64,000 bases of DNA. It comes from Malacoraja senta (taxonomy: Eukaryota). The stretch spans positions 5,394,001 to 5,458,000 of the forward strand of contig CM075988.1 of assembly GCA_038087875.1 (NCBI GenBank). Direction: 5' to 3'. Under the pieces are notes generated by a model. The model had not been told where the DNA came from. It saw nothing but the letters and a program-made list of their open reading frames with translations, and did no database searches. Position numbers and translations under genes: made by a program. This document shows, piece after piece, positions 12,617-47,843 of the stretch; the stretch's first letter is position 1; each line of letters opens with the position of its first letter.

Positions 12617-13392
12617 TGGCCCTGTCCCACTTAGCCAACATTTTAGGCGATTGCAGGAGACTATGCAGTCGCCATATGGTTGCCACATGTTCGCGGGAAG
12701 TTGCCGGGGAGTCGCCTTCAAGTTCATGAGGAGTTCCCGCATTCTGGGAACTGGTCGCGGCCTCATTATGGTCGCCGTGAATGTTTCAACATGTTGAAAA
12801 ATTAGCTGCGACTAGAATGAAGCCGCCATGGAGAGTAGCGAGAATTCTCGTGCCATAGGTGGGTCGCAGGGAGGTCCTAGTGGGTTGCCAGGAGGTCGAA
12901 GGTTCTCTTAGGTTCTCGTAGGTTGTAGCCGGTGCTGAACGGTGAATTTCATTGGCTCATTGGGAAAAAAAGGTAAGCAATAGTTTTCAGAACCAAGGAT
13001 AGCCGACTGGTGATGTTAAATGTCCGCCGAGCTTCACAGCCGTGTACCTCTGGCTTCCTAAAAGTTGTTTCCACTCCTTCTCCCCCTTCCCCCCTCCTTT
13101 TAAAGGACTGCCCGTACACTGCTAGCATTCTTAATTACAGCGCCAACCTTCCTGTTCATCGTGGTGTGTGTCTGTTTCACCTTGGCTTTGCACCGTGTGA
13201 ATTTCTCTCAGACAGAGCTCCCTCCGCTTGCCCTGTCCCCCGCCTGCATAACAGGCTAGTGAAGGAAGTGAGGTGTTTGTGTGTGTGTTCCACTCATCAG
13301 TCGCTGTTCCAGTTGCCGGTTTTTCAGGCGACTGCCGGCAACTTGACAGTCGCAGGCGTTCCCTGAGAAATCGCCTAAGTGGGACAGGCCCA
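12617..13392. mobile_element. PIF/Harbinger-type MITE (family B)
   Basis: TIR TGGCCCTGTCCCACTTAG / CTAAGTGGGACAGGCCCA; TTA TSD on both sides. Confidence 0.85.
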
Positions 13393-13736: not shown

Positions 13737-15138
13737 CAGGGGTGGGGAACCTACAGCCTTAAGGCCACATGTGGCCTTCTAGGCCATTAAGTGCGGCCTT
13801 TTGAATGAATCCAAATTTTCTAGAACAAATCCATTTATTTTTATTAACATATTTTTGTTTGTCTTTTACCAAAGAGTACCAAAGGAAGATTCAACGAAAT
13901 AATCCTCCCCGACTGACGGCCACAATTAAAACATTAGTAAGTCATGATGGCTATTTTAACAAAATAATGTACATTTTGAAGTATATCTAAGGAGGAGGAG
14001 CCATGTTGGGGAATGGCTGCTAACCAACAGCCGTCCGTTTAAAACACTTTTTTTAAATAGTTTTAGTGTGTCCATTGTCCAGTGTGTGGGAGTATTCTAC
14101 TTTTAAATGTAGGGTGAAGGGTAATTATATCCTAGGTCCCTACCTGGTCGGTGAGGCAGCTTTTTCTCCGGGCTGCCCCGTCGACCCGTCCTCGTGGCCT
14201 ACCAGCGGGCATGGAGCGCTGTTTCCTGACGGGGACCGCCCAGCACCTTCAGCTTCGGTCGGCAGCACAGCGTTGGAGCGCTATCGTGGAGCGTAGCGGG
14301 CGATGCCTTGCCTGGGTCGCCACGCTGGGTCGCCACGCTGGATCGACGCGCTGGAGCGGCGATTATGCGATGACCGCCGAGATCAACACCTCCGGGCTGT
14401 CGGTCTGCGGAGCGACCAGCTGCGGGCGGCGGCGCCGACTTTAACATCGGGAGCCTCGTGGCTCCAACTCGTGGCTCCAAATCGGCGCGGCCCTGTCGGC
14501 TTCAGGTGCCATGGACTCCGCTGGGAAACCGGCCGTTCCAGCCGCTGCGAGGACTCTCCCGACGGCCAGGAACATCGGGCCTCCGTAGAGGCAACTGTGG
14601 CGGCCTCGATGGGCCTGACTCTGGGGAGAACTGGGTTGGGGACTGGACAGTGTGCCTTCCCCCACAGTGGTAACCATTGTGGGGGGATGATTTTGTGTGT
14701 AGTGTTAAGTGTCTGTGTTAGTCTGTGTCAGTCTATGTCCAACATGGCGGTTGGAAGGTAGAGTGTACGCTGGCGCGGTTTGGCTGCCGCTGCTCTCCAT
14801 TCATGTTGTGTTTTGTGTTTTCTGAATTTTGTTGTTGTCTTCTTTGGATCAAATTTCTGTTTTTAACTTATGTGTTTGTGATGTCTTTATAACTTATTTT
14901 ACTCTGATTATATGTTTATATGTTTCTTTGTTAAATTGTAAGGTGTCAAGATTTTAATATTGATAAATGTATTGTGATTTTATGTCCTGTAAGGTGTCCT
15001 TGGGTGTCCAAAAAGGCGCCAGCAAATAAAATGCATTATTATTGTTATTATATCTAATTGAAGTTTCTTGGATGCGGCCTTATTAAATTACAGCTAACTT
15101 AACGCGGCCTTCTGACATGAAAAGGTTCTCCACCCCTG
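13737..15138. mobile_element. hAT-type MITE interrupted by a retro-insertion
   Basis: TIR CAGGGGTGGGGAACCT / AGGTTCTCCACCCCTG; internal GCGGCCTT repeats; no matching 8 bp TSD. Confidence 0.7.
13991..15048 (+). mobile_element. Non-autonomous GC-rich retroposon with L2-like 3' end
   Basis: 9 bp TSD TATATCTAA (13982-13990 / 15049-15057); 3' end GTAAGGTGTCCTTGGGTGTCC..AAAGGCGCC..AATAAA plus (TTA)n. Confidence 0.75.
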
Positions 15139-16263
15139 CACTAGAACAAGTGGTCAAAGTTCTGGAAAGTCATGTAAAAACAATGAATCAGATCATGAAG
15201 GAAAAGACCAAAGATAAGTCAAGCTCCCTCAAACAGGATCCTGTGTAGTATCTATGGGAATTAGATGCGAGAACTAAGAAAAATGTTGAGTGGGTCGGCC
15301 GATTAAGTAAAGTCGAGTTCAAGGAAGGTTGTGGGGGAGCTACTAGTAAAGCTTTGGGAATGATACTGGGACTTCTAATAATCCCGCAGGATAAATGTGG
15401 GCTGGAAGTTTACCAAGTAGAAAATATAAGCATTATTAGAGAAGGGATATGGCTAGGACATTAAGACATTCTGCCTTATTCCATCGAAGGGATTGGTAGA
15501 TACACCCCTGATTAAATGCCAACATCCTGACGGGATTGTTGTCTGTCCATACCCTAGATACAATGATGAACAAGCTCTATGTGGTTTTAAGGCGAAGGCA
15601 GGTTTAAATTCTACAACGGAAGCTAGGGCATTGAAGGTCGACATCACCAAGGTTGCAGAAAGAGGGAAAGGGGAATACTGTATAACCATTAATTAAAGGA
15701 ATATCAGTATGGTGTTCAGACATGTCCTATTACCAATACGACCTTCTGTATTAACCCGCAAATACCCGCCAGAATTGGTAAACTCGAGTTGATTGATATA
15801 CATAAACATAATGAAATTGTGATGGAAGTAACTAAGGGAATAAATGAAGATTTAGGCAAATGCTTCCAAAAAATATATTACAGAAGTTAGGCTCCTGCCT
15901 GAGAATTTACAATGGATTAAGAAACAGTTAATTAATGCCCACACTACATTCATTAAGGTCATCCAGCACACTGGAGAAATTGAGATGAATATTATTAAAA
16001 TTAAAGAAACCAGCTGCTGGGATGATATTTGGAACTGGGGTACAAATGTACAAATTCATCTGTGGGTGAGGTTTGCCTCCCACATTGCTATCATTGTGAT
16101 GGTTTTAATTTTAATATATCAAATGTATGTATTGATGATGTCTAAACGTTGGAAAGTGGGAATGGAGAGAAAGCTAAACATGGAACTGTACTTGCAGAAA
16201 AGTAATCAAAGATCAGAAAGGACAGATGTTAGAGGAGAACAAGTAAGAACTGACAAAGGATAG
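15138..16263 (+). pseudogene. env: Decayed retroviral-type envelope (TM/fusion subunit), foamy/lokiretrovirus-like
   Basis: Frameshifted reading: heptad-like ALEQVVKVLESHVKTMNQIM; LGMILGLLIIP..YQVENISII..PY; C-x6-VCPYP..LCG..GKGEYCI..CP..FC; Trp-rich WDDIWNWG; hydrophobic anchor IAIIVMVLILIYQMYVLMM; basic tail. Lies upstream of PPT and LTR once inserts are removed. Confidence 0.7.
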
Positions 16264-16296
16264 AGGCAACAAGCAGGGTCAGACATGTATAGATAA

Positions 16297-16533
16297 AGGG
16301 CCTGTCCCATTTTTAAGACCTAATTCACAACCTTTTTTACTCGTGGACATTTTTCATCATGCTAGAAAAACGCCCCGACCTACTTGATGCCACAAGTACC
16401 TAGGACTAGCATCACGGCCTGCTACGACTCTCCTACGACCTCCTACGACCTCGTGAGGACCATGCTGCGAGTATGAGTCAAGGGCAAACTCGGCAGAGGT
16501 CGTGAATTAGGTCGTGAAAGTGGAACAGGCCCT
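16297..16533. mobile_element. PIF/Harbinger-type MITE
   Basis: TIR AGGGCCTGTCCCA / TGGAACAGGCCCT; TAA left, TTA right; CTACGAC internal repeats. Confidence 0.8.
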
Positions 16534-17780
16534 TTAGGTCAAAGATGAGGGAAATAATGCTTTAATAGTGGCATAATAATCTTAATTTTACTTCGGAGTC
16601 ACGTGAGTGACTACGTGAAGAAGGCCGTCAGCCCGCATGCGCGTCATTACGTCTAGCGCATTGCGCAACAGCTGACTGGCAGGCGCGCTGCTCCTGCCAG
16701 CGGTAAGTTTAAACCTGCAGGTAAGTTACAATCTTTCCAGGTTATGTTTTCTACTGCAGGAAGAGTGGTTCCAGCCGTTGGCAGCAAAACCTCACGTCAC
16801 GTCATAACAGGAACAGGTGACGGCTGTGAGATACCATGCACCTGCAAATTGTTCCTGAAAGTGCCGGCGCTATCAGGGGTGACATTGGAGGGGCATGGAA
16901 CCCCAGGAAACCAGCCGCCGAATCTTCTCTTCAGGTAAGCCTATTCAACAGGTGAGACCTGCATGAGGGAGCAAAAGCTGTCAAACTACGAGTACAGCCT
17001 CATCGTTTCGGCAACAACCCACCCCATGCCTCCATCGGCAGTAAGCGGTTCACTGAAGCTGGTGGCAGCCAGCAAGCTGGGCAGAGATCTTTTAGGCCAA
17101 GGCTCAAGCCGGTCTCAGGAAAAATATGGAATCCACGTACCCTACCAGTCCTACTCTCCAATCAAGGAAGGAAATAGAACCCGCATCAGGTTCTATTGGG
17201 CTTACCATAAGACCACTGGTAACCATGAAGGTAGGTGGGTCTGGTTCTTTCCAAAACATGGGGTATGTGGACCATTTACAAGTTGGTAATATTTACACTT
17301 ATTTTTTGTACAATTGACAAAGTGAACATGTGATTAGTTTATACTGCACAGTATACAAGGATTCCAAGCAGGCTTGGAATGATGGCCAGAGTTGTCTTTA
17401 AAGGCAGACTCAGTATTATGGCCAGGATTGCCTTTGACACAGGCTCGGAAATATGACCAGAGTGTTTTTCAAAGCAGGCTCAAAAGTATGGCAGGCATGG
17501 CCTGATCATTATGTAAGATACAGGATGTCAGTTCATCCTTGATTTTACTTCGGAGTCACGTGAGTGACTATGTGAAGAAGACCCCGTCCAGCCGCACACG
17601 CGTCATGATCGATCAGACGCATAGCATTCATGACCGTGTGTGGAGGAGCAGCAGCTCCTCCAGGCGGTGAGTAAAGTAAATTTAAAGCAAAAATCGGTCA
17701 AGGTAAGTGGTTTCGTTTTTACTTACAGGGCACTTTTCTTCCCGCTCAGACGTGTTGGCAGAGGTCCACACAAACTCAGA

Positions 17781-18990
17781 ATGGAGAAAGGGCGTAGGGG
17801 AAGGAGAGGCCAGGGACGCACCGCAGGTAAAACCCCCGATGCTAAGGGTAGCGGGCGTCAGGAAGAGGAGGCAGTGGCATCGAAGCCATCAACTCCCGTT
17901 ACGGTCGAATGTGTCGTTAAACCGCTGGCGGCGGGGCGCAAGGCAGGACAAAAGTCGGCCCGACCTGTAGACTCGGATGAGTCAGACCCGGAGGTATATC
18001 CTCCTGCAGCAGAAAACGTTATGGCTTCAAGGGTCGTCAGTTTAGACCTCCTGATGGGGATTGATTTACAAAGAACCCCACAGGAGGAATCAGGTCGGTG
18101 TTGGCCAATGGAGGATACAGCACAGGGTGTGCCTTGGTTGGGACAGGCACAAGGGTGGCCTACAGGAGAGCCATCAGAAATGACTGTGCAAAGTTATTAC
18201 AGTGGTTGGCCTACAGGAGAGCCAGTGCCAGAAATGCCTGAAAAAAGGCAGTATATGTGCTGGCCTACTGAAGAGCCAGTACCAGAAATGTCTCAAAAAG
18301 ACAGTACAAACGTACTTATGTGCCAGCACCGAAAGTTTCTAAAAGGGAAAAATATGAAGCGTTGGCCTAGAGTTGAGCCAGCGCCAGCAGCACCTGAAAC
18401 AGGGCTGCCTATCCGTGGGCCTATAAGAGAGCCCGCGCAGGGGGAATCTGGCATAGACTTACCTGAAACAGGGGAGCCAGAATTTACCCAACCTGAAGAG
18501 GAACATCTACATTCAGAAGATGAATTCTATGAGGATGAGAGCCCATTATCAGAGCTGAAAGTTCCTGGACTAGCACAAAAGTTTGCTGTTCCTAGAATAA
18601 AAGGGGAACCTTTGAGGGATGAAATAGCAATGACTATAAATTATCTACTCTCCCATCAGCTCCAGGAAGTAACTATGATGAGACTATGAAACAGTATGAG
18701 CCTCGGAGAATTGTGAATTGCTGACAGTTCCAGCAGTGAATAACTTGATTTGGGGTTATTTCAGCATTGGTTTACGCTCACAAGAATTGAAATTGCAACA
18801 TGTATTGAAATTGCTGGGGTCAGGCATCACGACATTTGCCAGAGGATTGGATGATGATTTTGTATCAGATTCACAACAAGATGCTTTAGCACTGATGTGT
18901 GGTGCGCACTTTGAAATAAATTGTATTCGTAAAAATGCAATAAGACCAAATATTCATCCTCTGCAAACCAACCAACATACAAATGCCTAA
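17781..18990 (+). pseudogene. gag: DIRS ORF1 (gag-like), frameshifted
   Basis: 349 aa ORF plus continuation L.VPAVN..IW...LQ..L; position 5' of RT; internal WPTGEP repeats. Confidence 0.75.
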
Positions 18991-19229
18991 ATCTGCTGTT
19001 TGGAGAGTTAAAAAAAAATAATAATAATAAAAAAACCTGAGTGGTATGATGATGCGACCACCAATGCTGAGCAGAGCAGTGCGAAGGCAGTATCCCTACA
19101 GGCGGAATGCTGGTGCTGGAGAAGGAACAAGTCGATCATTCTCGTATACACGTTGGCGTGCTGCACCGGGGATACGTGGAGGTTACAATATGCCTACCAG
19201 AAGGGAACAACAATGGCCAGTGGCAAACC

Positions 19230-21061
19230 CCGAGGTAGGGGGTCCTGGTCTGGTAAGGAAGACAAATGATTTATTTATTCTAAACAGCATTGTAGGATTC
19301 AAAATTGAGTTCTACCACATTTGGATCCTCCAAGGCAAGAAAATTCAAACTGGTCACGAATTTTCTCAAAAGAAGAGAATAAGTTGATCAAAGGAGAATT
19401 AGAAACTTTAACCAAAAAGGGGGTAATAGAGAAGTCAGTAGAACAACACCATCAGTTTGTATCAAATATTTTTCCAAGAACAAAAAAGGATGGTGGATGT
19501 AGAATCATATTGGATCTGACAAATCTTAACCTTTATGTACAATACAAACATTTCAAAATGGAAACATTTACTAATGCAATTCAGCTAATCACAGAAAATT
19601 GCTACATGGCAAGCATAGATCTGCAAGATGCATATTATTCTGTGGCAATGCATGGTAATGATCAAAGATATTTGAAATTTAGATGGATGTCAGTTATGGC
19701 AATTTAAAGCATTGCCCAATGGTCTGACTTCAGCACCAAGATTATTCACTAAATTGCTCAAACCAATTTTAGCTCTGTTAAGAGCTGAGGGCCATGTATT
19801 AATGGCTTATTTAGATGATATCCTCATTGTAGGGGACACTTTGGCTGCTGCAAAATTGTCAGTATCCAGAGTCAAATACATTTTGAGAAATTAGGTTTCA
19901 TTATTCACCTACAAAAATCTAAATTGTTACCAAGCAAAAAGATTGATTACCTAGGGTTCACAATTAACTCGGAATACATGGTAATCACTTTGCCAAAAGA
20001 TAAAAAGCTGCAGTTAATTGAAGGTTGCATAAAACTCATTAACGAGGACACACCTTCAATTATAGAAGTGGCAAGCTTGCTAGGCAAATTAATTGCAGGG
20101 TTTCCAGCAGTCACGTTTGGACCATTGCATTATCAATGTTTACAGAGAGCTAAGGTACAAGCGTTAAAAATGAATAGAGGGCATTTTGACAGGCCCATGA
20201 AATTAACAATTCAATCCATTACAGAAATAGAATGGTGGATTAACAATGTTTCTAATGCTTCCAGAAAAGTTCTGGTAGAAACACCTTCCGTCACTCTACA
20301 GACTGATGTAAGTGCGCTGAGTTGGGACGCTACTAACATGATTTCCAGCTGTGGAGGTAGGTGGAATGTGAATGAAGTACCTTTGCTGGAAAATCTGGGA
20401 ATCAATTACCTAGAGCTATTAGGCGCATTTTACGGCCTTAGAGCTTATTGCACTGATATGGGAAATGTGCATGTTCAGGTACAGGTTGACAATACTACAG
20501 CTGTAGCATACATAAATCACATGGGTGGTATAAAATCAGAATCATGTGATAAATTGGCAAATGAAATTTGGACCTGGGGTATTGCCAGAAAAATTTGGCT
20601 GTCAGCAATATATTTACCAGGTAAAAATTAATACAATTGCAGACAAAAGATCACGTAAATTTAATGATAATACAGAATGGATGTTAAATCGGAAAATATT
20701 CACACAAATTATCACACAATTTGGAATGCCAGAAATTGATCTGTTTGCATCAAGATTGAACCACCAGTTGCCTAAGTATGTGTCATGGGAACCTGATCCT
20801 GGAGCAGTAGCGGTGGATGCTTTCTCGCTACATGGGGGTGGTGTGTTTCTGTATGCGTTTCCGCCATTTTGTTTAATCCACAGATGCATACAGAAAATTA
20901 AACAAGATTCAGCCTCAGGGATTTTGTTAGTACCAGATTGGCCTAAACAGCTATGGTACCCACTGGTGTTAAAAATAATCAACAACAAAAAAACCCTTAT
21001 GGTTATTCCAAAGCAGATTAAACTGCTTGTACACCCTGTGACTGATGAACCTCCAGTTTAA
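19230..21061 (+). pseudogene. pol: DIRS pol: RT, RNase H and Dam-like adenine methyltransferase domain (frameshifts/stops)
   Basis: KKDGGCRIILDL, FKMET, SIDLQDAY, PNGLTSAPRLFTK, YLDD; TD.S..W, INYLEL, DNTTAVAYIN.MGG; DLFASRLN...DAF...YAFPPF...PDWP. Confidence 0.93.
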
Positions 21062-21169
21062 ATTCCATTTGGAATATTTTGGAGGACCAAGAAACCAAGA
21101 ACCAAGAACCACATCCTTTACATGATCGTATTGGTTTGTTGATTTGCAGATCCTAAGAAGGCCATATCT

Positions 21170-22110
21170 TGGAAAGGATTATCAGACCGTACGGTGGATG
21201 TTATGACAGCCGCCTGGAGGAATAGTACCCGGAAGCAGTACTATATATAAAGAAATGGGAGGAGTTTTGTTCAGGGAAACATATTGCATATAACCCAGCA
21301 GAAATTTCAGATGTAATATAGTTCCATTCTACTCTATACTATGAATTAAAATTAAGTTATAGTGCAATTAATACTGCACGAAGTGCACTCTCTGCATATT
21401 TAAGCAGTGAATCAGAACAAACTCCAATAGGAGCACATCCTTGGGTCTGTAGGTTTATGAAAGGAATTTTCAACTCTAATCCTCCCAGACCTAGGTATAC
21501 AGAAATTTGGAATGTAAAAGATGTACTGATGTTGCTAAGGAATTGGAATCCAGTTGAAACTCTGTCATTATCCAAAATCACCATGAAATTGGTTATGCTC
21601 ATGGCATTAGTTTCAGCTTAGAGAGTTCAAACATTACAGAAACTCAGAATTGATAGAATGAAAGTAGGGCCAAATGCCGTGACATTCTATGTCTATGATT
21701 TACTGAAGCAAAGTAGACCTGGGTTCACAGGATGCAAGTTGGAATTTTTAGCATATCCTACAGATCCACGACTGTGTGTAGTAACATATGTGAAATGTTA
21801 CATAGCAAAAACAAAAGTTTTAAGAGGCATTTTTTATTAGTCATAAAAAGCCTCATAAGAAAGTGTCAACACAAACAATTTCACGATGGTTGAAACTGGT
21901 GTTGAGATATTCAGGTATTGATACTGATAAAATTAAATCTCATTCCACCAGGGCGGCATCAACATCAGCGGCCAGGGATTCAGACGTGCAATAGACCTTA
22001 TTCTCGCGGCCGCAGGATGGGCAAGTGAACAGATGTTTCACAAGTATTACCATAAGGAGATTAAAGATCTCAGAGGGTTTGGTGATGCCGTGCTGGATAG
22101 AGTATTAAAT
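21170..22110 (+). pseudogene. DIRS tyrosine recombinase (decayed)
   Basis: SAINTARSALS, LMALVSA*RV, KQSRPG, HSTR (~21941), AAGW (~22009), F.KYY. Confidence 0.9.
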
Positions 22111-22310
22111 CCCCCATTATAATAAATGGGCCTAATTTTGTTACTTTTATTAAAATAAATAAAACCATTAACTGGTTACATTCAAATGTTGTGGTTATGC
22201 ATTGTTGATTGTGCTTACTCAAATAGAGTCAATCGATGCAGTGAACACCTAGATTTGAATCCACGGTGTGAAATCACAGAGCTTTGAAATCTTCACATAG
22301 TCACTCACGT

Positions 22311-22517
22311 TCATGATATATGTATTTTGTTCATGATATATGTATTTTGTTCATGATATATGTACTTGTTCATGATATATGTATTTTGTTCATGATATAT
22401 GTATTTTTACTTCTATTTATTTTTTACTGCACACTGAAATGGACACTGGTTGAGGAACGTTTTTTTGTTTCCTCTGGGTATGCGAATACTCAGGAAATGA
22501 CAATAAAGATATACAAT
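22311..22517 (+). mobile_element. Short non-LTR 3' fragment with 20 bp tandem repeat, inserted in the inner DIRS ICR
   Basis: ACGT duplication (22307-22310 / 22518-22521); TCATGATATATGTATTTTGT x~4; ends ATGACAATAAAGATATACAAT. Confidence 0.7.
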
Positions 22518-25500
22518 ACGTGACTCCGAAGTAAAATAGTAAGATTAAACGAGAACTTATCAGTTTGAAGTTTGATCTTTATTTTATGAGGAGTAACGTT
22601 GAGGGATTACGTGCCCTCCGCTCCCACCCTCATAAAAGGATCAAGCTGGTAGTTCTAAGTCTTTATGCATCTTACTATCATACTTCAGTAATTATCGTCT
22701 GTGATTGTCACTCCGCTGCTTTGAAAGATTGACGCGTGTGCGGCTGGACGGGGTCTTCTTCACGTAATCCCTCAACATTACTCCTCATAAAATAAAGATC
22801 AAACTTCAAACTGGTAAGTTCTCATTTAATCTTACTATTAACTCGCATGTGCAGTATAGATATTTTCAGCATAACAAACTTTGTTTCTGTCTAACAATTG
22901 ATTTCCATAGCATCTTTATGGCATGCATTGATCTCAAAGATGCATACCATTCAGTTCTCATTCACAGGGATCCCCGGAGATATTTGAAATTTAGCTGGAT
23001 GGGGCAATGATAACAGTAAAAACGTTGCAAAATGTGCTAACTTCAGTTCCCAGGCTATTTACCAAATTACCAAAACCGGTGTTTGGGATGCTTAGAGCTC
23101 AAAAACACTTGTTATGGCCTAACTACATGATATTCTAAACGCTGTATTTTGCTAAAATTAACTGTTTCGGCCGCATACTATATTAGAGAAATTGGGGTTT
23201 CTCATCCATCCAGTTAAATTTAAGTTGATACCAACTAGAATTATTGATTATTGGGATTTACCTTTAACTCTATTAATTTGCTGTGACTCTGCCCTACAGC
23301 AAGAGATTGGAATTAACAAAAGCCTGTAACAACCTTGTTGTTATGAAGCAGCCTCAATTCATCAAGTCTAATTGGCAATATAGTGGCTGTGTTTTCAGCT
23401 GTGCATTTGGACCTTTGCATTATCATAACTTACAACGTGCAAAGGAGTAACCTCTTCAGTGCCATGTAGGTCATTATTAACAGACCTATGCTATTAGCAG
23501 CTGAAGCTATCAAAGTCACAATGGTGGACGAACAGTATTGAACATTGCTCCTGTAACTTTTGCTCAGTAACTCTTCAGTTATATTACAAACTGATGCTAG
23601 TACTCAAAAATGAAAAATTATGAATAACATCTCTAGCTACGGAGGCGGATGAGCTTTGCATGAGTTACCTATTTTTCAGTTATATGGTATCAACTACCAA
23701 TAAAACACAAGGTATATATTATGGGTTAAAAGTTTATTGTGCGAATATGCATAATCAACATGCTCAACTCCAAGTTGATACACTATTGTGGTGGCATATG
23801 TTAATCACATGGGTGCAGTCAAGTTAAATATCCTGTGATAATTTACCTAACCTCATTTGGCGCTGGTGTATCATCACGTAAAATCACCATTGCAAAAATA
23901 TGTGGCACAGTGGCAACAGATGTATTCTCGCTACCCTGAGGAGGAATGTTCTTTATGTCTTTCCTCCATTTTGCCTCATCAGTCGTGTCTTGCACAAAAT
24001 CCAGCAAGATCTCGCCTCAGGCATTTCGTACTGCCTGACTGGCCTATGCAGCCATGGTTCCCGCTAAATGTTGGGAATGATAATAGGACCTTATATGGTT
24101 ATCCTAAAACACAAAAATTTGGTGGTTCACCCCATGACTCGGGAAACCATCCTCTGCATGATAAAATCAATTTATAGACTTGCAGACTCTGAGAAGACCG
24201 TTCCGGCGGCTCAGGTTGCCAGACCGATCTATGTACGTGCTCACTGCAGAGTGCAGGGATAGCACCGAATAAACAGCACATTTTTCCTCATCAGGAGATG
24301 GGAAGTGTTTGTTTTAATGACAATGTACCATATAATACGGCACGAATAACTAACGTCTCGGAGTTCATTTTCAGGTGGGTCTTTGACAATTAATTAAGTT
24401 ATAGTACCATTAACTGTGCCAACATGCATTCTCATCATAGTTGCTGCAGTGATCGGGACCCACTCTGTCGGGTCTCACCCTTTGATATCCAGATTTATAA
24501 AGGATATCTTTAATGCAAATTCTCCTAGGCCCAGGTCTCGGAGATATGGGATGTTAACATTGTTCTAAAACTGCTTCGCCGGTGGGGCCCAGCTACATCT
24601 CTATCCCTGGTCAAACTCACTTACAATGTGGTTATGCTCATGGCGCTAGTCTCAGCGCAACGGGTCCAGCCACTACATAAATTGCGACTGGACAGGATGG
24701 TTACATCTGCTAATAATATAATATTTGATGTTTATGATGTAGTTAAGCAGAGCAGACCATGGGCATCAAGTCCCAAACAATTTTTCATGGCATACCCCAT
24801 GGACCTTTGGTTGTCTGTGGTTACACATTTACAACAATACGTCAAGGTCACCAAGAGCCTTAGAGGCTCTGCACCAGCAATGTTTGATAGTTACTAAAAC
24901 ACCTCATAAAAGGTATCAATCCAGACCATCTCCAGGTGGTTAAACGGGGTTTGGCTTATGCAGGAGTAGATACTTATATTTTCTATCTCACTCCACTAGG
25001 GCTGCTACAACATTAGCAGCAAGGGTTATGTACGTTCCACTAGACCACATCCTAGCGGCTGCAGGATGGTTAACGAACGAACTTTCCAACATTTTATAAT
25101 AACCCATTGCCAGACCGGGGTTATTTGCCAAATTCCTTTGATGATTAAAGCATCAGCATTTTTAACAAACTATGTCATGGCTGAATGCATTAATCTTTTT
25201 CACTCATCCATGGTCAATTGATGCAGTGTGTAACGCCTGGACTCGTATCCGGCATGAAATCACAGAGCTTTGAAGTCTTCACGTAGTCACTCACGTGACT
25301 CCGAAGTAAAATAGTAAGATTAAATGAGAACTTACCAGTTTGAAGTTTGATCTTTATTTTATGAGGAGTTACGATGAGCGATTACGTGCCCACCGCTCCC
25401 AACCCTCATATTATGAAGGTCATCTGGTAGTTCTAGTTCTCTCCAATCTTACTATGTTCAGGTCAATTACTGTTATCTGTGATTTCACACCTCTGCTTTG

Positions 25501-25729
25501 AAGATTGACGCGCATGCGGGCTGACGGCCTTCTTCACGTAATCGCGCATCGTAACTTCTCATAAAATAAAGATCAAACTTCAAACTGGTAAGTTCTCGTT
25601 TAATCTTACTATTACAATTTGCATAGCTATGTTTTGTAGAAAATTGTCACTGACAAAAACTCAGATATATATAGCCAAGGTTCAGTGTGATCCAATTCAC
25701 TAAACGCTCTATGGATCAAAGAGGGGACA

Positions 25730-26474
25730 TATAGACTGGGACTGGATGACAAGTATCCCGACAGGCTTTGTGAGGATGTTACTAGCTAGAGATAGAGGGA
25801 GCGAAATGCTGGAACCAGGAGAACCAAGAAGAGCAGTGAAAATGGTCACGTCATTGACGTCTGGTTGGAGCAGAGCTGAAGGTAACTTCACGCTAGGCAG
25901 TACGGCCTTGAGAAGATAAGGTGCCTGAACGGACAGTTTGCAAAATAACTATAATGAGAAAGAGATATGAACAGACAATGTAATTAAGAACGCTCTAGCC
26001 TGATAAAGAACGAAGATGTGTTTTGTTTATTCAGCCCTTGGAGGAGTGACAACTTGAAATGATCGACTTTAAAGTCATGAGAGCCTTGAGTTCGAACAAA
26101 GGCTTCCTTTGGAAGATGGAAGGAAAATTAGTATAAAAGAAGGGCAGTCCCGAGACATCGGCTGCGACAAAGAGGGAACAACCATCACAAGAATAAGGGC
26201 CCTGAGTTTGAAACTCAGAGAAGAATACCCCCTACCAACAGAGTGAACCTGGCCAATTCATTCATACGGGTAATACCTGACTCCAAGTCATGTGTTTTGT
26301 GATTTAGTTTAAGAAGTGATAAGTTGAAATAGTAAAGTAAATGAGAAGTTATTAGAAGTCAATTGTTTGCATGCATGTTTAAGTTACTCGAGCGTTAATA
26401 AAGATTAAGTTGTACTTAACCTTGGTTTTGTTCGACACGTCAGTTGATACCCTATGGAGGTAATAGGGTCAACA
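25730..26474 (+). mobile_element. 3' LTR of the env-bearing element
   Basis: PPT AAAGAGGGGA at 25718-25727; termini TATAGAC...GTCAACA (decayed TG...CA inverted ends); TATAAAA at ~26132; AATAAA at ~26397. Confidence 0.7.
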
Positions 26475-26655
26475 ATACCTTGAGTGTGCAAGCAAAGAAT
26501 CGCACTGTGACTTGTCACATGTGACAATAAAGTATTCATTTATTCATTCATTCATTCATTCATTCATTCTTAAATCCTATTGCTCTTGCTCTCCTTCACC
26601 CAATGGCACATATGAGTTGCACGAGAACCCTCCCCACACACCCCACCATTCCTTA

Positions 26656-27269
26656 AAGGCCTGTCCCACTTGAGCGTAATTTGCACATCATTTACGCGAC
26701 AGGCCGGTAGTGACTGTCGCGCGAAAATTGTCTAGCAGTACGGCAGTCTTGCGCCAAGTGCTCTTGAGTGCCTTGCTTCTTTTGGGAGCCATTTGCGATA
26801 TCGTTCGTACTTAGTCCGATCCCCATGGCAAGGATTTTCCCAGTGATAATCAAAGATACTATGGTGAAAATTTTTCAAAACTACGCGCGCTTTATACCCG
26901 TGTGGTCACGTGGTGCGGTGCTCAAATGACGCGCAAATGGCACGCAGACGGTGTACGGTCGGCACATGGTTACAGACGTTGACACACGGTGACGCATAAT
27001 AAATTAGCATAGGCAATGTTCATGCATCACCGTGCATAACCATGCGTCACCACGCGCTACACGTGTGCCGTCAGTACGTCAGCGTCCACAAGGGATACGT
27101 CACGCAGGTGGCGCGTGAGGATTTTGAGCATTGCAAAATCCTGGGGCGCCGCGTGTTACTGCGCATCACTGCATACGCCACCATGCCTCACCAGCGCCAT
27201 GTGCGCGTCACCACGCGCCAACCAATTTTTAGGATGTCGCGCAAATGACGCCCAAGTGGGACAGGCCCT
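26656..27269. mobile_element. PIF/Harbinger-type MITE (CpG-rich)
   Basis: TIR AAGGCCTGTCCCACTTG / CAAGTGGGACAGGCCCT; TTA TSD on both sides. Confidence 0.85.
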
Positions 27270-27851
27270 TTACTTTCCTCTACATTACTTTACATTACTC
27301 ACCGCCCAACCACCCATTACTTACTTCCCTCAATGAGAGAAGGGGTAAGTTTCCAAATGTGGGATTGGAATTTGCACCACTTCTACCAATCTAACTAAAC
27401 TCTCTCTCCACAAATGTTGTTTAATTTTATAGACAATTCTGCTGTTCTCTGCTCTTTTTTTAAAATTTCAGATTTCCGATATCTGTAGTTCTCTTTTTTT
27501 GTGCTTTTTGATTGATTGGTTGACTGAATTAAAGATACAGCAAGGAAATAATCCATTGAGTTCATTCAGACCATCGATCACCTGTTCACACTAGTTCTTT
27601 GTAATCCCACTTTCTCATCCACTCCCTGCACACAGAGGGCCAATTAGTAACCTATAAACACGCTCGTCTTCAGAATGTAGGTAGGAAGGAAACCCATATA
27701 GTCACAAGGAAAAGGTGCAAATTCCACGCAGGCAGCACTAGAGGTCAAGATCGAATCCGAGCCTGGTGCAGTGAAACAGCAGCTCCACCAACTGCACCGG
27801 TGAGATGTCCTGTGTAGACAGAGAAGGAATCAGTGATTCCCCAAAGGAGGT

Positions 27852-45596: not shown

Positions 45597-47843
45597 TGTG
45601 GTATTATGGAATAATAGTGTAAGGAATGCCTTTATTCTGCTGCCAGTGGTCAGGCTGCAGTGACGGCATCCGGCCTGAAGGTGGGGCTGTGGGCGTAACC
45701 AGAGAGGCCTAGGAGCAGGGCCCGGGGATGCAGCACGAGGCTGCTGCTGTAGAGAGTTGCTAAATAAAGACAGACTCCGATTACGTCGTTGTACGAGCCT
45801 CATTATAAGAATAATTCGATATGGTGTCAGAAGTGGGATGCCATGTGGTCACCTGTGGCATATGCGTCCAGGTCAATGACGCCAACAGAGCAGCGCTATG
45901 CTCAAGTAGAGAAGGAGGCATTGGCTGCAACGTGGGCATGTGAAAGGTTCAGCTGTTTCATCCTGGGAAGACCATTCGAGCTGGAAACTGACCATAAGCC
46001 GTTGGTGAGTCTGCTGGGAAGGAAAGCTTTGGATGACCTCCCACCAAGAATCCAAAGATTTAGGATGAGACTCATGAGGTACAACTATACAGTCAATCAT
46101 GTCCCTGGCAAAAGCCTGTGGACAGCCGACACCTTATCCCGTGCTCCTCTGAGAGCCGCAAGAGCACACACAGACACAAGCCTATTAGAGGACACCAACA
46201 TCTATGTAGACTCTGTCATCAGCAACATTCCTGTCAGTGGAGATTATCTGAGCAGCCTACGTGAGCACCTGAAGGCAGACAGCACATGCTCTGCACTGAT
46301 GGAGTACTGCACAGACGGCTGGCCCGACAAAAGTCAACTGCAGGGAGTGCTGAGACATTACTGGGCTGATAGAGCAGTGCTGACTGTGCACGATGGGCTG
46401 CTGCTGCGGGGCACGAGACTCGTCATCCCATCAGCCTTACAAGGTGATGTGCTGCAGAGACTACATGAGGGACACCTGGGGGTGACAAAGTGCAGGGGCC
46501 GGGCCAAACAGACGGTATGGTGGCCAGGACTCAGCAGCCAGCTGAATGACATGGTGCTGAAATGTAGAACCTGCATCCAAGAGAGAAGGAACGTCAAAGA
46601 GCCGCTGATGCCAACGGAGATGCCAGACAGGCCTTGGCAAACCTTGGGAGCTGACCTGTTCACGCTGAAAAACAAGACTTATCTAATAGTAGTAGATTAT
46701 TTCTCAAGGTAGGTGGAAGTTGCGCTGCTGTCACACACAAGGTCCACAGATGTGGTGGTGCACCTGAAATCCATGTTTTCTCGTCATGGAATTGGGGAAT
46801 TTCTTAAAAGTGACAATGGGCCCCAGTTCTCAGGTAGCCACTTTAAAGCCTTTGCAGCAGAGTATGGCTTTGTGCACATCACGAGCAGCCCCAAGTTTCC
46901 TCAGAGCAATGGGGAGGCGGAACGCGCTGTACAAACCGTGAAAAACCTGCTAACAAAGGCATCAGACCCATATCTTGCATTGCTGGCCTACAGAGCAACC
47001 CCTCTACAGAACGGCTATAGCCCGGCCGAGCTGTTGATGGGGCGCCGCCTCCGCACTACAGTTCCTGCCCTTCCAACCCTGCTGAATCCAGTTTTGCCTG
47101 ACTACAACGCGCTGGGGGCCAAAGAAAGGGAGAAGAGGAGGAACGACGCAAGATCCTTCGACAAGAGGCACGGAGCGAGAAACCTGGAGCCACTCGTACC
47201 TGGGGAGGATGTGTGGATCACCGATGCACGAGTCCAGGGCACAGTGCTATCTACACACAACACCCCTCGCTCTTATATCGTCCAGGTGCCTCAGGGCACA
47301 CTGAGGAGGAACCGGCATCACTTGGTGCCGCTGCAGACCAACAGTGGGGTAGTCGATGCTGATGAGCCACCGGTGGGAGAAGATTCACCTACACCAGAGC
47401 CAGCTCCACCAGTGACAACATCACTCAGCAGAGAGGGCCCCACCACAGAGACGGTGCGGACCAGGTATGGGAGAGAGGTTAGAAAGCCGCAGAGACTTGA
47501 TTGGTGATTTATTGATTTGTTTGATCAGGGACAGGTCTTTCAGCAAAAGGGCAGAATAAACCCCTTAAGACCTGCAGAGACAAAGGTAGTCCACCCTTTG
47601 TTCTCAAAGAAAGGGAGATGTGGTATTATGGAATAATAGTGTAAGGAATGCCTTTATTCTGCTGCCAGTGGTCAGGCTGCAGTGACGGCATCCGGCCTGA
47701 AGGTGGGGCTGTGGGCGTAACCGGAGAGGCCTAGGAGCAGGGCCCGGGGATGCAGCACGAGGCTGCTGCTGTAGAGAGTTGCTAAATAAAGACAGACTCC
47801 GATTACGTCGTTGTACGAGCCTCATTATAAGAATAATTCGATA
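45597..47843 (+). mobile_element. Internally deleted Gypsy (Mag-like) LTR retrotransposon inserted in a HE1 SINE
   Basis: 225 bp LTRs (45597-45821, 47619-47843) differing at one visible base; 5 bp TSD TTAAC; PBS TGGTGTCAGAAGTGGGAT (tRNA-Leu-like); PPT AAAGAAAGGGAGA. Confidence 0.97.
45844..47507 (+). pseudogene. pol: Gypsy pol remnant: RNase H C-part and integrase, one in-frame TAG at 46710-46712
   Basis: PVAYASR..Y.Q.EKEALA, TDHKPL, ADTLSR; HHCC (HEGH..CRTC); D,D35E (VVDYFSR, SDNGPQF, NGEAER). Confidence 0.95.

Follow-up and report, generated by a model that had tools for sequence, protein, structure and literature searches.

A decayed env gene, a polypurine tract (PPT) and a long terminal repeat (LTR) lie among transposable elements in a 64,000-nt stretch of the Malacoraja senta genome (positions 5394001-5458000 of contig CM075988.1; hereafter the window), which raises the question of what kind of retrovirus left them. 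A first-pass annotation, made from the letters of the window, had proposed a simple lokiretrovirus-like (Loki) or spuma-related lineage. Having searched the 1.94-Gb genome, we arrive at another lineage. The locus is probably the 3' third (env, PPT and LTR) of a decayed endogenous retrovirus (ERV), hit by a miniature inverted-repeat transposable element (MITE), two DIRS-type retrotransposons and a hAT-like element; its ancestor would be a basal canonical retrovirus, neither foamy nor Loki, of the grade of snakehead retrovirus (SnRV), with an envelope protein predicted to be of the paramyxovirus F type. The evidence comes from other copies of the element, which we call family A (37 genomic stretches sampled), and from a young sister family in the same genome, family B (nine stretches read). 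The features of the locus, numbered within the window, are the following:

13737..15138, no strand assigned: element that we take to be hAT-like from its terminal motif; 15-nt inverted ends read directly; left boundary of the provirus remnant
15139..16263, + strand: decayed env remnant, homologous to family-B Env (E 7.9e-10)
16084..16140, + strand: predicted transmembrane (TM) helix of Env, the best Kyte-Doolittle 19-mer (mean 2.62)
16297..16533, no strand assigned: MITE in the env-LTR spacer, presumably of PIF/Harbinger type; 40-nt inverted ends, TAA/TTA flanks
16585..25613, + strand: outer DIRS-type retrotransposon in the spacer; split inverted ends, no target duplication
17542..22839, + strand: inner DIRS-type copy lying within the outer one; reverse transcriptase (RT) and methyltransferase-like remnants
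25718..25727, + strand: PPT, read directly, 2 nt upstream of the LTR
25730..26474, + strand: 3' LTR of 745 bp; TA...CA ends, AATAAA close to the 3' end

Every part named by the first-pass annotation, from the env frame through the MITE and the DIRS nest to the PPT and LTR, was recovered at its position. The env motifs that it listed (a heptad, LG..IIP..QVENI, VVC, CG, G.YC and a Trp-rich segment) are present, split over forward frames 1 and 2 with interspersed stops (15138-16296), and the hydrophobic 19-mer is that of the TM helix above. The remnant contains the end of heptad A, a beta-rich F1-like core, heptad B, the Trp-rich segment, the TM helix and a tail; it is a fragment, without signal peptide, furin site or fusion peptide. 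Relative to copy L021, it has stops, three frame-shifting indels and a ~95-nt deletion. The window copy was cut at 15138 by the hAT-like element and its 5' half is lost, no family-A sequence having been found upstream in the window or in the 10 kb to its left. It is a dead fragment, unable to encode a working protein.

That env, PPT and LTR belong to one element, as had been proposed, follows from other copies in which the insert sites are empty. Eight of the 37 family-A stretches have an empty MITE site, its flanks meeting at one base (three of these, L029, L031 and L032, appear to be a single duplicated locus), and nine have an empty DIRS site, with flanks overlapping by 1-3 nt. In uninterrupted copies, env continues directly into the PPT and LTR, and the PPT holds the same position in L021, L023 and L039. 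The window LTR is ~90% identical, over gap-free columns, to all five other LTRs compared. The genome-wide LTR search that the annotation had recommended revealed a dispersed repeat (at least 43 matches of the PPT-LTR block from the best 40 of 571 candidates scored) and recovered two-LTR copies with 4-bp target duplications, in which the LTR flanks the same env; a search with the family-A env gave 38 candidates. The earlier view that the element becomes readable only after removal of the inserts holds for the link to the PPT and LTR; the inserts lie in the spacer, outside env, and env can therefore be read without excising them. With the inserts removed, 197 nt separate the env stop from the LTR in the window copy, compared with ~215 nt in L021 and ~290 nt in family B. 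This leaves no room for accessory genes, in agreement with the simple 3' end without tas/bet that had been noted.

The two-LTR copies of family A (L021, L022/23, L026-28, L085 and L087/88) reveal the anatomy of the element. L021 comprises, in order, an LTR, a primer-binding site (PBS), gag, an AT-rich segment of ~1 kb, RNase H (RH) and integrase (IN) remnants, env, PPT and LTR. LTRs end in TA...CA, and 4-bp target duplications flank L021 and L087/88. Gag has a coiled coil and a CCHC-like knuckle, the zf-CCHC match being weak (E 0.064). The PBS of L022 has its complement at the 3' end of host tRNA-Asn(GTT) genes; the tRNA-Asn pattern has ten genomic matches, and all three loci scanned were called Asn. 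The copies read have lost the protease (PR)-RT region, whose place is taken by the AT-rich segment in L021 and L022 and partly so in L024, L035, L037, L077 and L085. This segment (L021:4990-6120) is devoid of coding signal and is itself a dispersed repeat, with at least 62 matches from the best 40 candidates scored.

A further defect concerns env. L024, L035 and L027 retain a ~430-nt piece with the furin site and fusion peptide, L029, L031, L085 and L087 retain part of it, and in L021, L023, L033 and L037 it is missing at an identical junction. The cleavage site and fusion peptide can thus be read in the family-A copies L024/L035. We considered and rejected the possibility that this difference is an insertion, as the piece belongs to the env coding sequence and was lost from other copies. 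The window copy also lacks it, its assignment to the deleted group resting on ~5 nt left of the junction. Five pairs of family-A LTRs have Kimura two-parameter distances of 0.050, 0.056, 0.071, 0.097 and 0.127, which would correspond to 50-130 million years (My) at an assumed rate of 0.5e-9 per site per year, as used in PMC10699275, or to 115-290 My at an assumed 2.2e-10, from PMC4422223. Family A is old and defective. The C-terminal half of env nevertheless gave pairwise dN/dS values of 0.34-0.55 against L021 in 15 of 15 copies; with six copies pooled, the coding frame had a dN/dS of 0.42, as against 0.74 and 1.15 for the two alternative frames and 0.57-0.86 for LTR controls. As all comparisons share L021 as reference, this gives no more than a modest hint that env functioned before the copies decayed.

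Family B was found by a genome search with one natural family-A env frame, at 27-32% identity and with long open frames. Its proviruses (e.g. L053-L058, L061-L064, L071) measure ~10.7-10.9 kb and consist of gag, an in-frame TGA, pol and a 798-codon env frame (L071:372-2765). A -1 frameshift at the gag-pol junction was rejected, since pol lies in the gag frame. The LTRs are of ~880 nt, with pairs 97-99.9% identical in six of the nine stretches and 4-bp target duplications; no copy examined is free of broken frames. The genome contains more than 100 integrase matches, at 50-58% to family A, that were attributed to family B. Pfam recognizes RT, tether, RNase H and IN in its Pol and zf-CCHC in its Gag (E 8.5e-5). 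Family-B Pol thus has a dual RNase H (tether and RH), a trait common to all retroviruses, of which family A retains the second RH only. For the family-B primer, the single hit in the genome lies on an unusual 94-nt gene that ARAGORN calls tRNA-Gly, which makes this tRNA a tentative candidate. An antisense open frame of 241 codons lies within pol in five of the nine stretches (including L053, L055, L057 and L061), with one of 260 codons in a sixth; it may simply reflect the codon usage of pol.

Family A matches family B in Gag, in RH, in IN and in Env, which follow the same order in both. The Envs are 27-29% identical (27% at E 6e-29), the family-A integrase is 53% identical to that of family B, and in a ranking of 44 Pols the family-A RH and IN score highest with family B or with P0001, a close relative of it. 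The integrase motif is IDYIGP in family B and VDYIGP in family A. This shared series of genes argues against the rival that fares best, namely that family A is a separate env-bearing, non-autonomous mosaic of several LTR elements with a parent not closely tied to family B. In its favour, the LTRs of the two families are unrelated and their PBSs differ; the integrases of A and B do not form a supported clade; and the AT-rich segment is also present between paired LTRs and downstream of IN in Gypsy-type elements (L130-L137, e.g. L134 and L137). One divergent family-A-like env is moreover preceded, ~1 kb upstream, by a decayed ERV-L-like RT (L083:6677-7081) nearest to a dUTPase-bearing class III Pol, which is either a nested insert or a recombinant. 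We regard such a mosaic as unlikely.

The place of the lineage was sought with a tree of the RT-tether region (30 rows, 419 columns; nine rows that were redundant or partial and the majority of Gypsy matches were left out). The references comprised mammalian foamy viruses, gamma genomes, three contigs with a Loki RT motif, two of which have gag-pol-env and resemble published Loki elements by eye, and L095 (10,688 nt), which we take to be SnRV from its size and layout. Family B falls within the canonical retroviruses with support of 99/99, and Loki falls outside. Within the canonical retroviruses, family B shares a basal polytomy with SnRV and with Pols from frog, Xenopus, coelacanth and ostrich. 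The ostrich (Struthio camelus) protein of this basal grade, P0009, is annotated as 'NYNRIN-like'. Approximately unbiased (AU) tests reject a grouping of family B with Loki (RT-tether, p 0.0014) and with the mammalian foamy references (RT, p 0.029). For the 118-aa integrase remnant of family A (125 columns), groupings with foamy and Loki are rejected (p 0.005 and 0.024) and that with family B is not (p 0.50). The RT placement that the first-pass annotation had called for could therefore be made for the sister family, in the canonical retroviruses, and the membership of a Loki-like or spuma-related lineage that it favoured did not hold; for family A itself, RT is absent from the 37 stretches.

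The Env presents a different set of affinities. No CX6CC or immunosuppressive-domain (ISD)-like motif occurs in the three window frames, as had been observed, nor in the family-B or L021 Envs. An HMMER search over 1.84 billion representatives gave 25 matches; seven of the ten looked up are named, namely six proteins from five species of shark and one frog protein. A word-index search with family-A Env passed none of 291 candidates. Scored with a profile of the Env family, Loki Envs reach 41-47 bits, foamy Envs at most 11, SnRV at most 4 (3.7) and shuffled sequences at most 2.3, while gamma Envs fall below zero. HHalign gives Loki 97% (E 3e-11, 347 columns) and foamy 20% (E 1e-3). The Env family has its closest sequence affinity with Loki Env, so that the likeness seen by the first-pass annotation stands.

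Several of these Env relatives are annotated as host genes. Those of Chiloscyllium punctatum (P0053), Pelodytes ibericus (P0063) and Heterodontus francisci (P0050) are full-length (739 and 723 aa are recorded) and are possible cases of co-option; the gene model of an fbxo15 isoform includes a spliced-in piece of env. The N-terminus of family-B Env is extended by ~230 aa, whose best Atlas look-alikes (residues ~85-250) are Ig domains with a score of 0.83, which we give as a lead only; the shark relative P0053 bears the annotation 'Ig-like domain-containing'.

Structure prediction points to a class I fusogen with the fold of paramyxovirus F and foamy Env. Family-B Env carries an R-x-R-R-type furin site, a fusion peptide, heptads and a TM segment, and was modelled with AlphaFold2. 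Foldseek found 80 PDB matches at E<=0.001 for this model; among the matches listed, all were F proteins of paramyxo- or pneumoviruses, the best being those of Langya virus, respiratory syncytial virus, human parainfluenza virus 3 and Newcastle disease virus (E 2e-8 to 4e-7). In BFVD, a lispivirus F came first (5e-7) and feline foamy Env second (5e-5). The top six VIA matches were foamy Env (Z 8.1; rmsd 14.7 over 239 aligned residues of a low-confidence model) and five F proteins (Z 6.6-7.8), coiled coils ranking lower. Atlas features of family-B Env score 0.94 to PF00523/PF12259 clusters. The predicted secondary-structure order is also that of the F proteins (PF00523), from which this Env differs in its identity of 9-15% and in being carried by a retrovirus; a Loki Env used as control matches PF00523 at E 0.002. 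Of the F-like or foamy-like Env that had been suggested, the family-B model thus bears out the prediction, and the family-A half taken alone does not. A putative role of the Env in membrane fusion in the ancestor is suggested by this predicted fold and the hint of purifying selection.

The Env match speaks for the second rival, a true lokiretrovirus that would extend that lineage to cartilaginous fishes. Families A and B and Loki would share an F-like Env (furin site, fusion peptide, heptads and TM segment), a dual RNase H in the case of family B, a simple gag-pol-env layout without 3' accessory genes and a coiled-coil Gag, and the top Pol matches of family B carry the automatic name 'NYNRIN-like', no true CGIN1 row being present in our tree. 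Those names, with the Xenopus and Latimeria matches, had led us to an initial Loki reading, which was dropped as published Loki-Lch differs from P0007 and the tree rejects it. Besides the RT tree and the AU tests, the motifs argue against it: family-B RT has LPQG, whereas the available portion of the Loki supplement (PMC7947760) has PFGY 14 times and LPQG never, and IDWIGP four times and IDYIGP never. Gag has a CCHC knuckle here and none in the Loki reference Gag, the ~230-aa N-terminal part of family-B Env is extra relative to Loki Env, and the Loki integrase pattern, searched as an exact match, is absent from this genome. The same paper reports Loki elements in five classes, Chondrichthyes excluded, and lists four cartilaginous genomes as screened. 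The Loki reading is already largely refuted for family B, and we consider it very unlikely for the locus. Alternatively, the Env likeness may stem from an exchange of env between Loki and the present lineage.

Foamy viruses share with these elements a predicted F-type Env core, and some members a tRNA-Asn PBS (PMC11468914, PMC5512871), such as NviFLERV-1 (PMC5512871) among the foamy-like ERVs; the family-A integrase has its best PDB match in prototype foamy virus IN, and foamy Env occupies the top two rows for the family-A Env half, at non-significant E values (0.026 and 0.33). None of PF03408, PF03539, PF03276/PF20672 and SH3_11 is found in family A or B, a foamy control matching all of them; a genome search for the spuma protease family passed none of eight candidates and is uninformative, as its control was silent too. 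Foamy viruses have a Gag without Cys-His box and Pol in a separate frame; the open reading frame layout of the foamy reference genome was seen directly. A foamy or foamy-like element that lost tas/bet can scarcely be the source, given the lack of spuma domains and of tas/bet space, the CCHC Gag, the single gag-pol frame with its in-frame stop, the RT and IN tests on a tree without fish or shark foamy-like Pol, and a family-A integrase only 34-37% identical to foamy IN.

Among the closest known systems is SnRV. Compared with L095/L123, family B shares the coiled-coil Gag with one CCHC knuckle, the in-frame gag-pol stop, the LPQG RT, the tether and second RNase H and the canonical-retrovirus RT clade, and SnRV Env is likewise without ISD/CX6CC, a signature of the gamma-type orthoretroviral Envs. 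The differences are substantial: its RT is only 35% identical to that of family B and is not grouped with it with support; SnRV has a 240-codon 3' accessory frame for which A and B have no room; its Env is far less close to the present one than Loki Env; and family A lacks PR-RT and has a tRNA-Asn PBS. SnRV-like ERVs in sharks are already known. CmiERV lineage I of the elephant shark groups with SnRV (PMC4422223), and the SnRV-like/Huo grade has been described (PMC4422223, PMC6001957, PMC4977317). A literature search that left subscription journals and Repbase outside yielded no description of an SnRV-grade retrovirus from cartilaginous fishes with an F- or Loki-like Env.

Several points weigh against an origin in the SnRV-like grade with an F-type Env. 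A basal group including SnRV is not rejected (AU p 0.25), which is all the test says, and no supported SnRV clade is recovered; the p values for family B with foamy (0.029) and for the family-A integrase with Loki (0.024) are modest, and some of the groups tested were chosen only after inspection of the first trees. With the family-B Pol as tblastn query, RH or IN was found in eight of the 37 family-A stretches, and protease or RT in none but L083; the placement of family A is therefore indirect, through the 118-aa IN remnant, RH, Gag and Env. The HHalign match to SnRV Env is weak (32%, E 4.7e-4, 278 columns). The family-B Env model has a mean pLDDT of 48.5, TM-scores of 0.1-0.2 and rmsd of ~30 A, so that the fold match rests on local structure, and VIA Z scores near 8 are reached by unrelated models. 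The C-terminal half of family-A Env has no structural match at E<=0.001, and the fold call for family A is therefore transitive via family B. Finally, neither Env matches Pfam or the PDB by sequence: the A and B Envs and 16 relatives hit no Pfam fusogen family, PF00523 included, and PDB searches with both Envs and the profile returned nothing significant.

As to the inserts, the inner DIRS copy matches RVT_1 (E 2e-6) and weakly a Dam-like domain (E 0.02), and the outer and inner copies show 65-84% similarity. A copy related to the MITE is inserted at another site in L021. Two further elements, at 12619-13392 and 26655-27272 of the window, have ends resembling those of the 16297 MITE, and a Gypsy-type RNase H-integrase remnant lies on the + strand at 45768-47507.

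From the sister copies and family B, the ancestral virus would have used tRNA-Asn-primed reverse transcription and integrated with a 4-bp duplication. Its Gag would have had an N-terminal coiled coil and one CCHC knuckle, and Pol was likely made through stop-codon readthrough. Env would have been cleaved at R-x-R-R, freeing the fusion peptide, and refolded via its two heptads. Family A likely spread as a non-autonomous element after the ~1-kb AT-rich non-coding segment replaced PR-RT; the ~430-nt env deletion, common to several dispersed copies, would have removed the cleavage site and fusion peptide. With both defects shared between copies, family-A elements would be copied by the enzymes of a helper. 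The window copy would later have taken four insertions and lost its 5' half.

We tentatively suggest that cartilaginous fishes carry a widespread and still young canonical retroviral lineage, whose Env may be homologous by sequence to Loki Env and, more faintly, to SnRV and foamy Env. Wang & Han (PMC7947760) listed four scenarios for the origin of Env and could not choose among them, because Loki Env resembled paramyxovirus F and had no overall similarity to retroviral Env. More recently, foamy Env was found to have the F core as well (PMC11468914). The value of the locus lies in the family discovered through the window copy. A canonical Pol combined with an Env that can be aligned with Loki Env, and that weakly resembles those of SnRV and foamy viruses, is the kind of intermediate that makes these scenarios testable. 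Among retroviruses, F-type Env may have an earlier origin and a wider distribution than the literature indicates.

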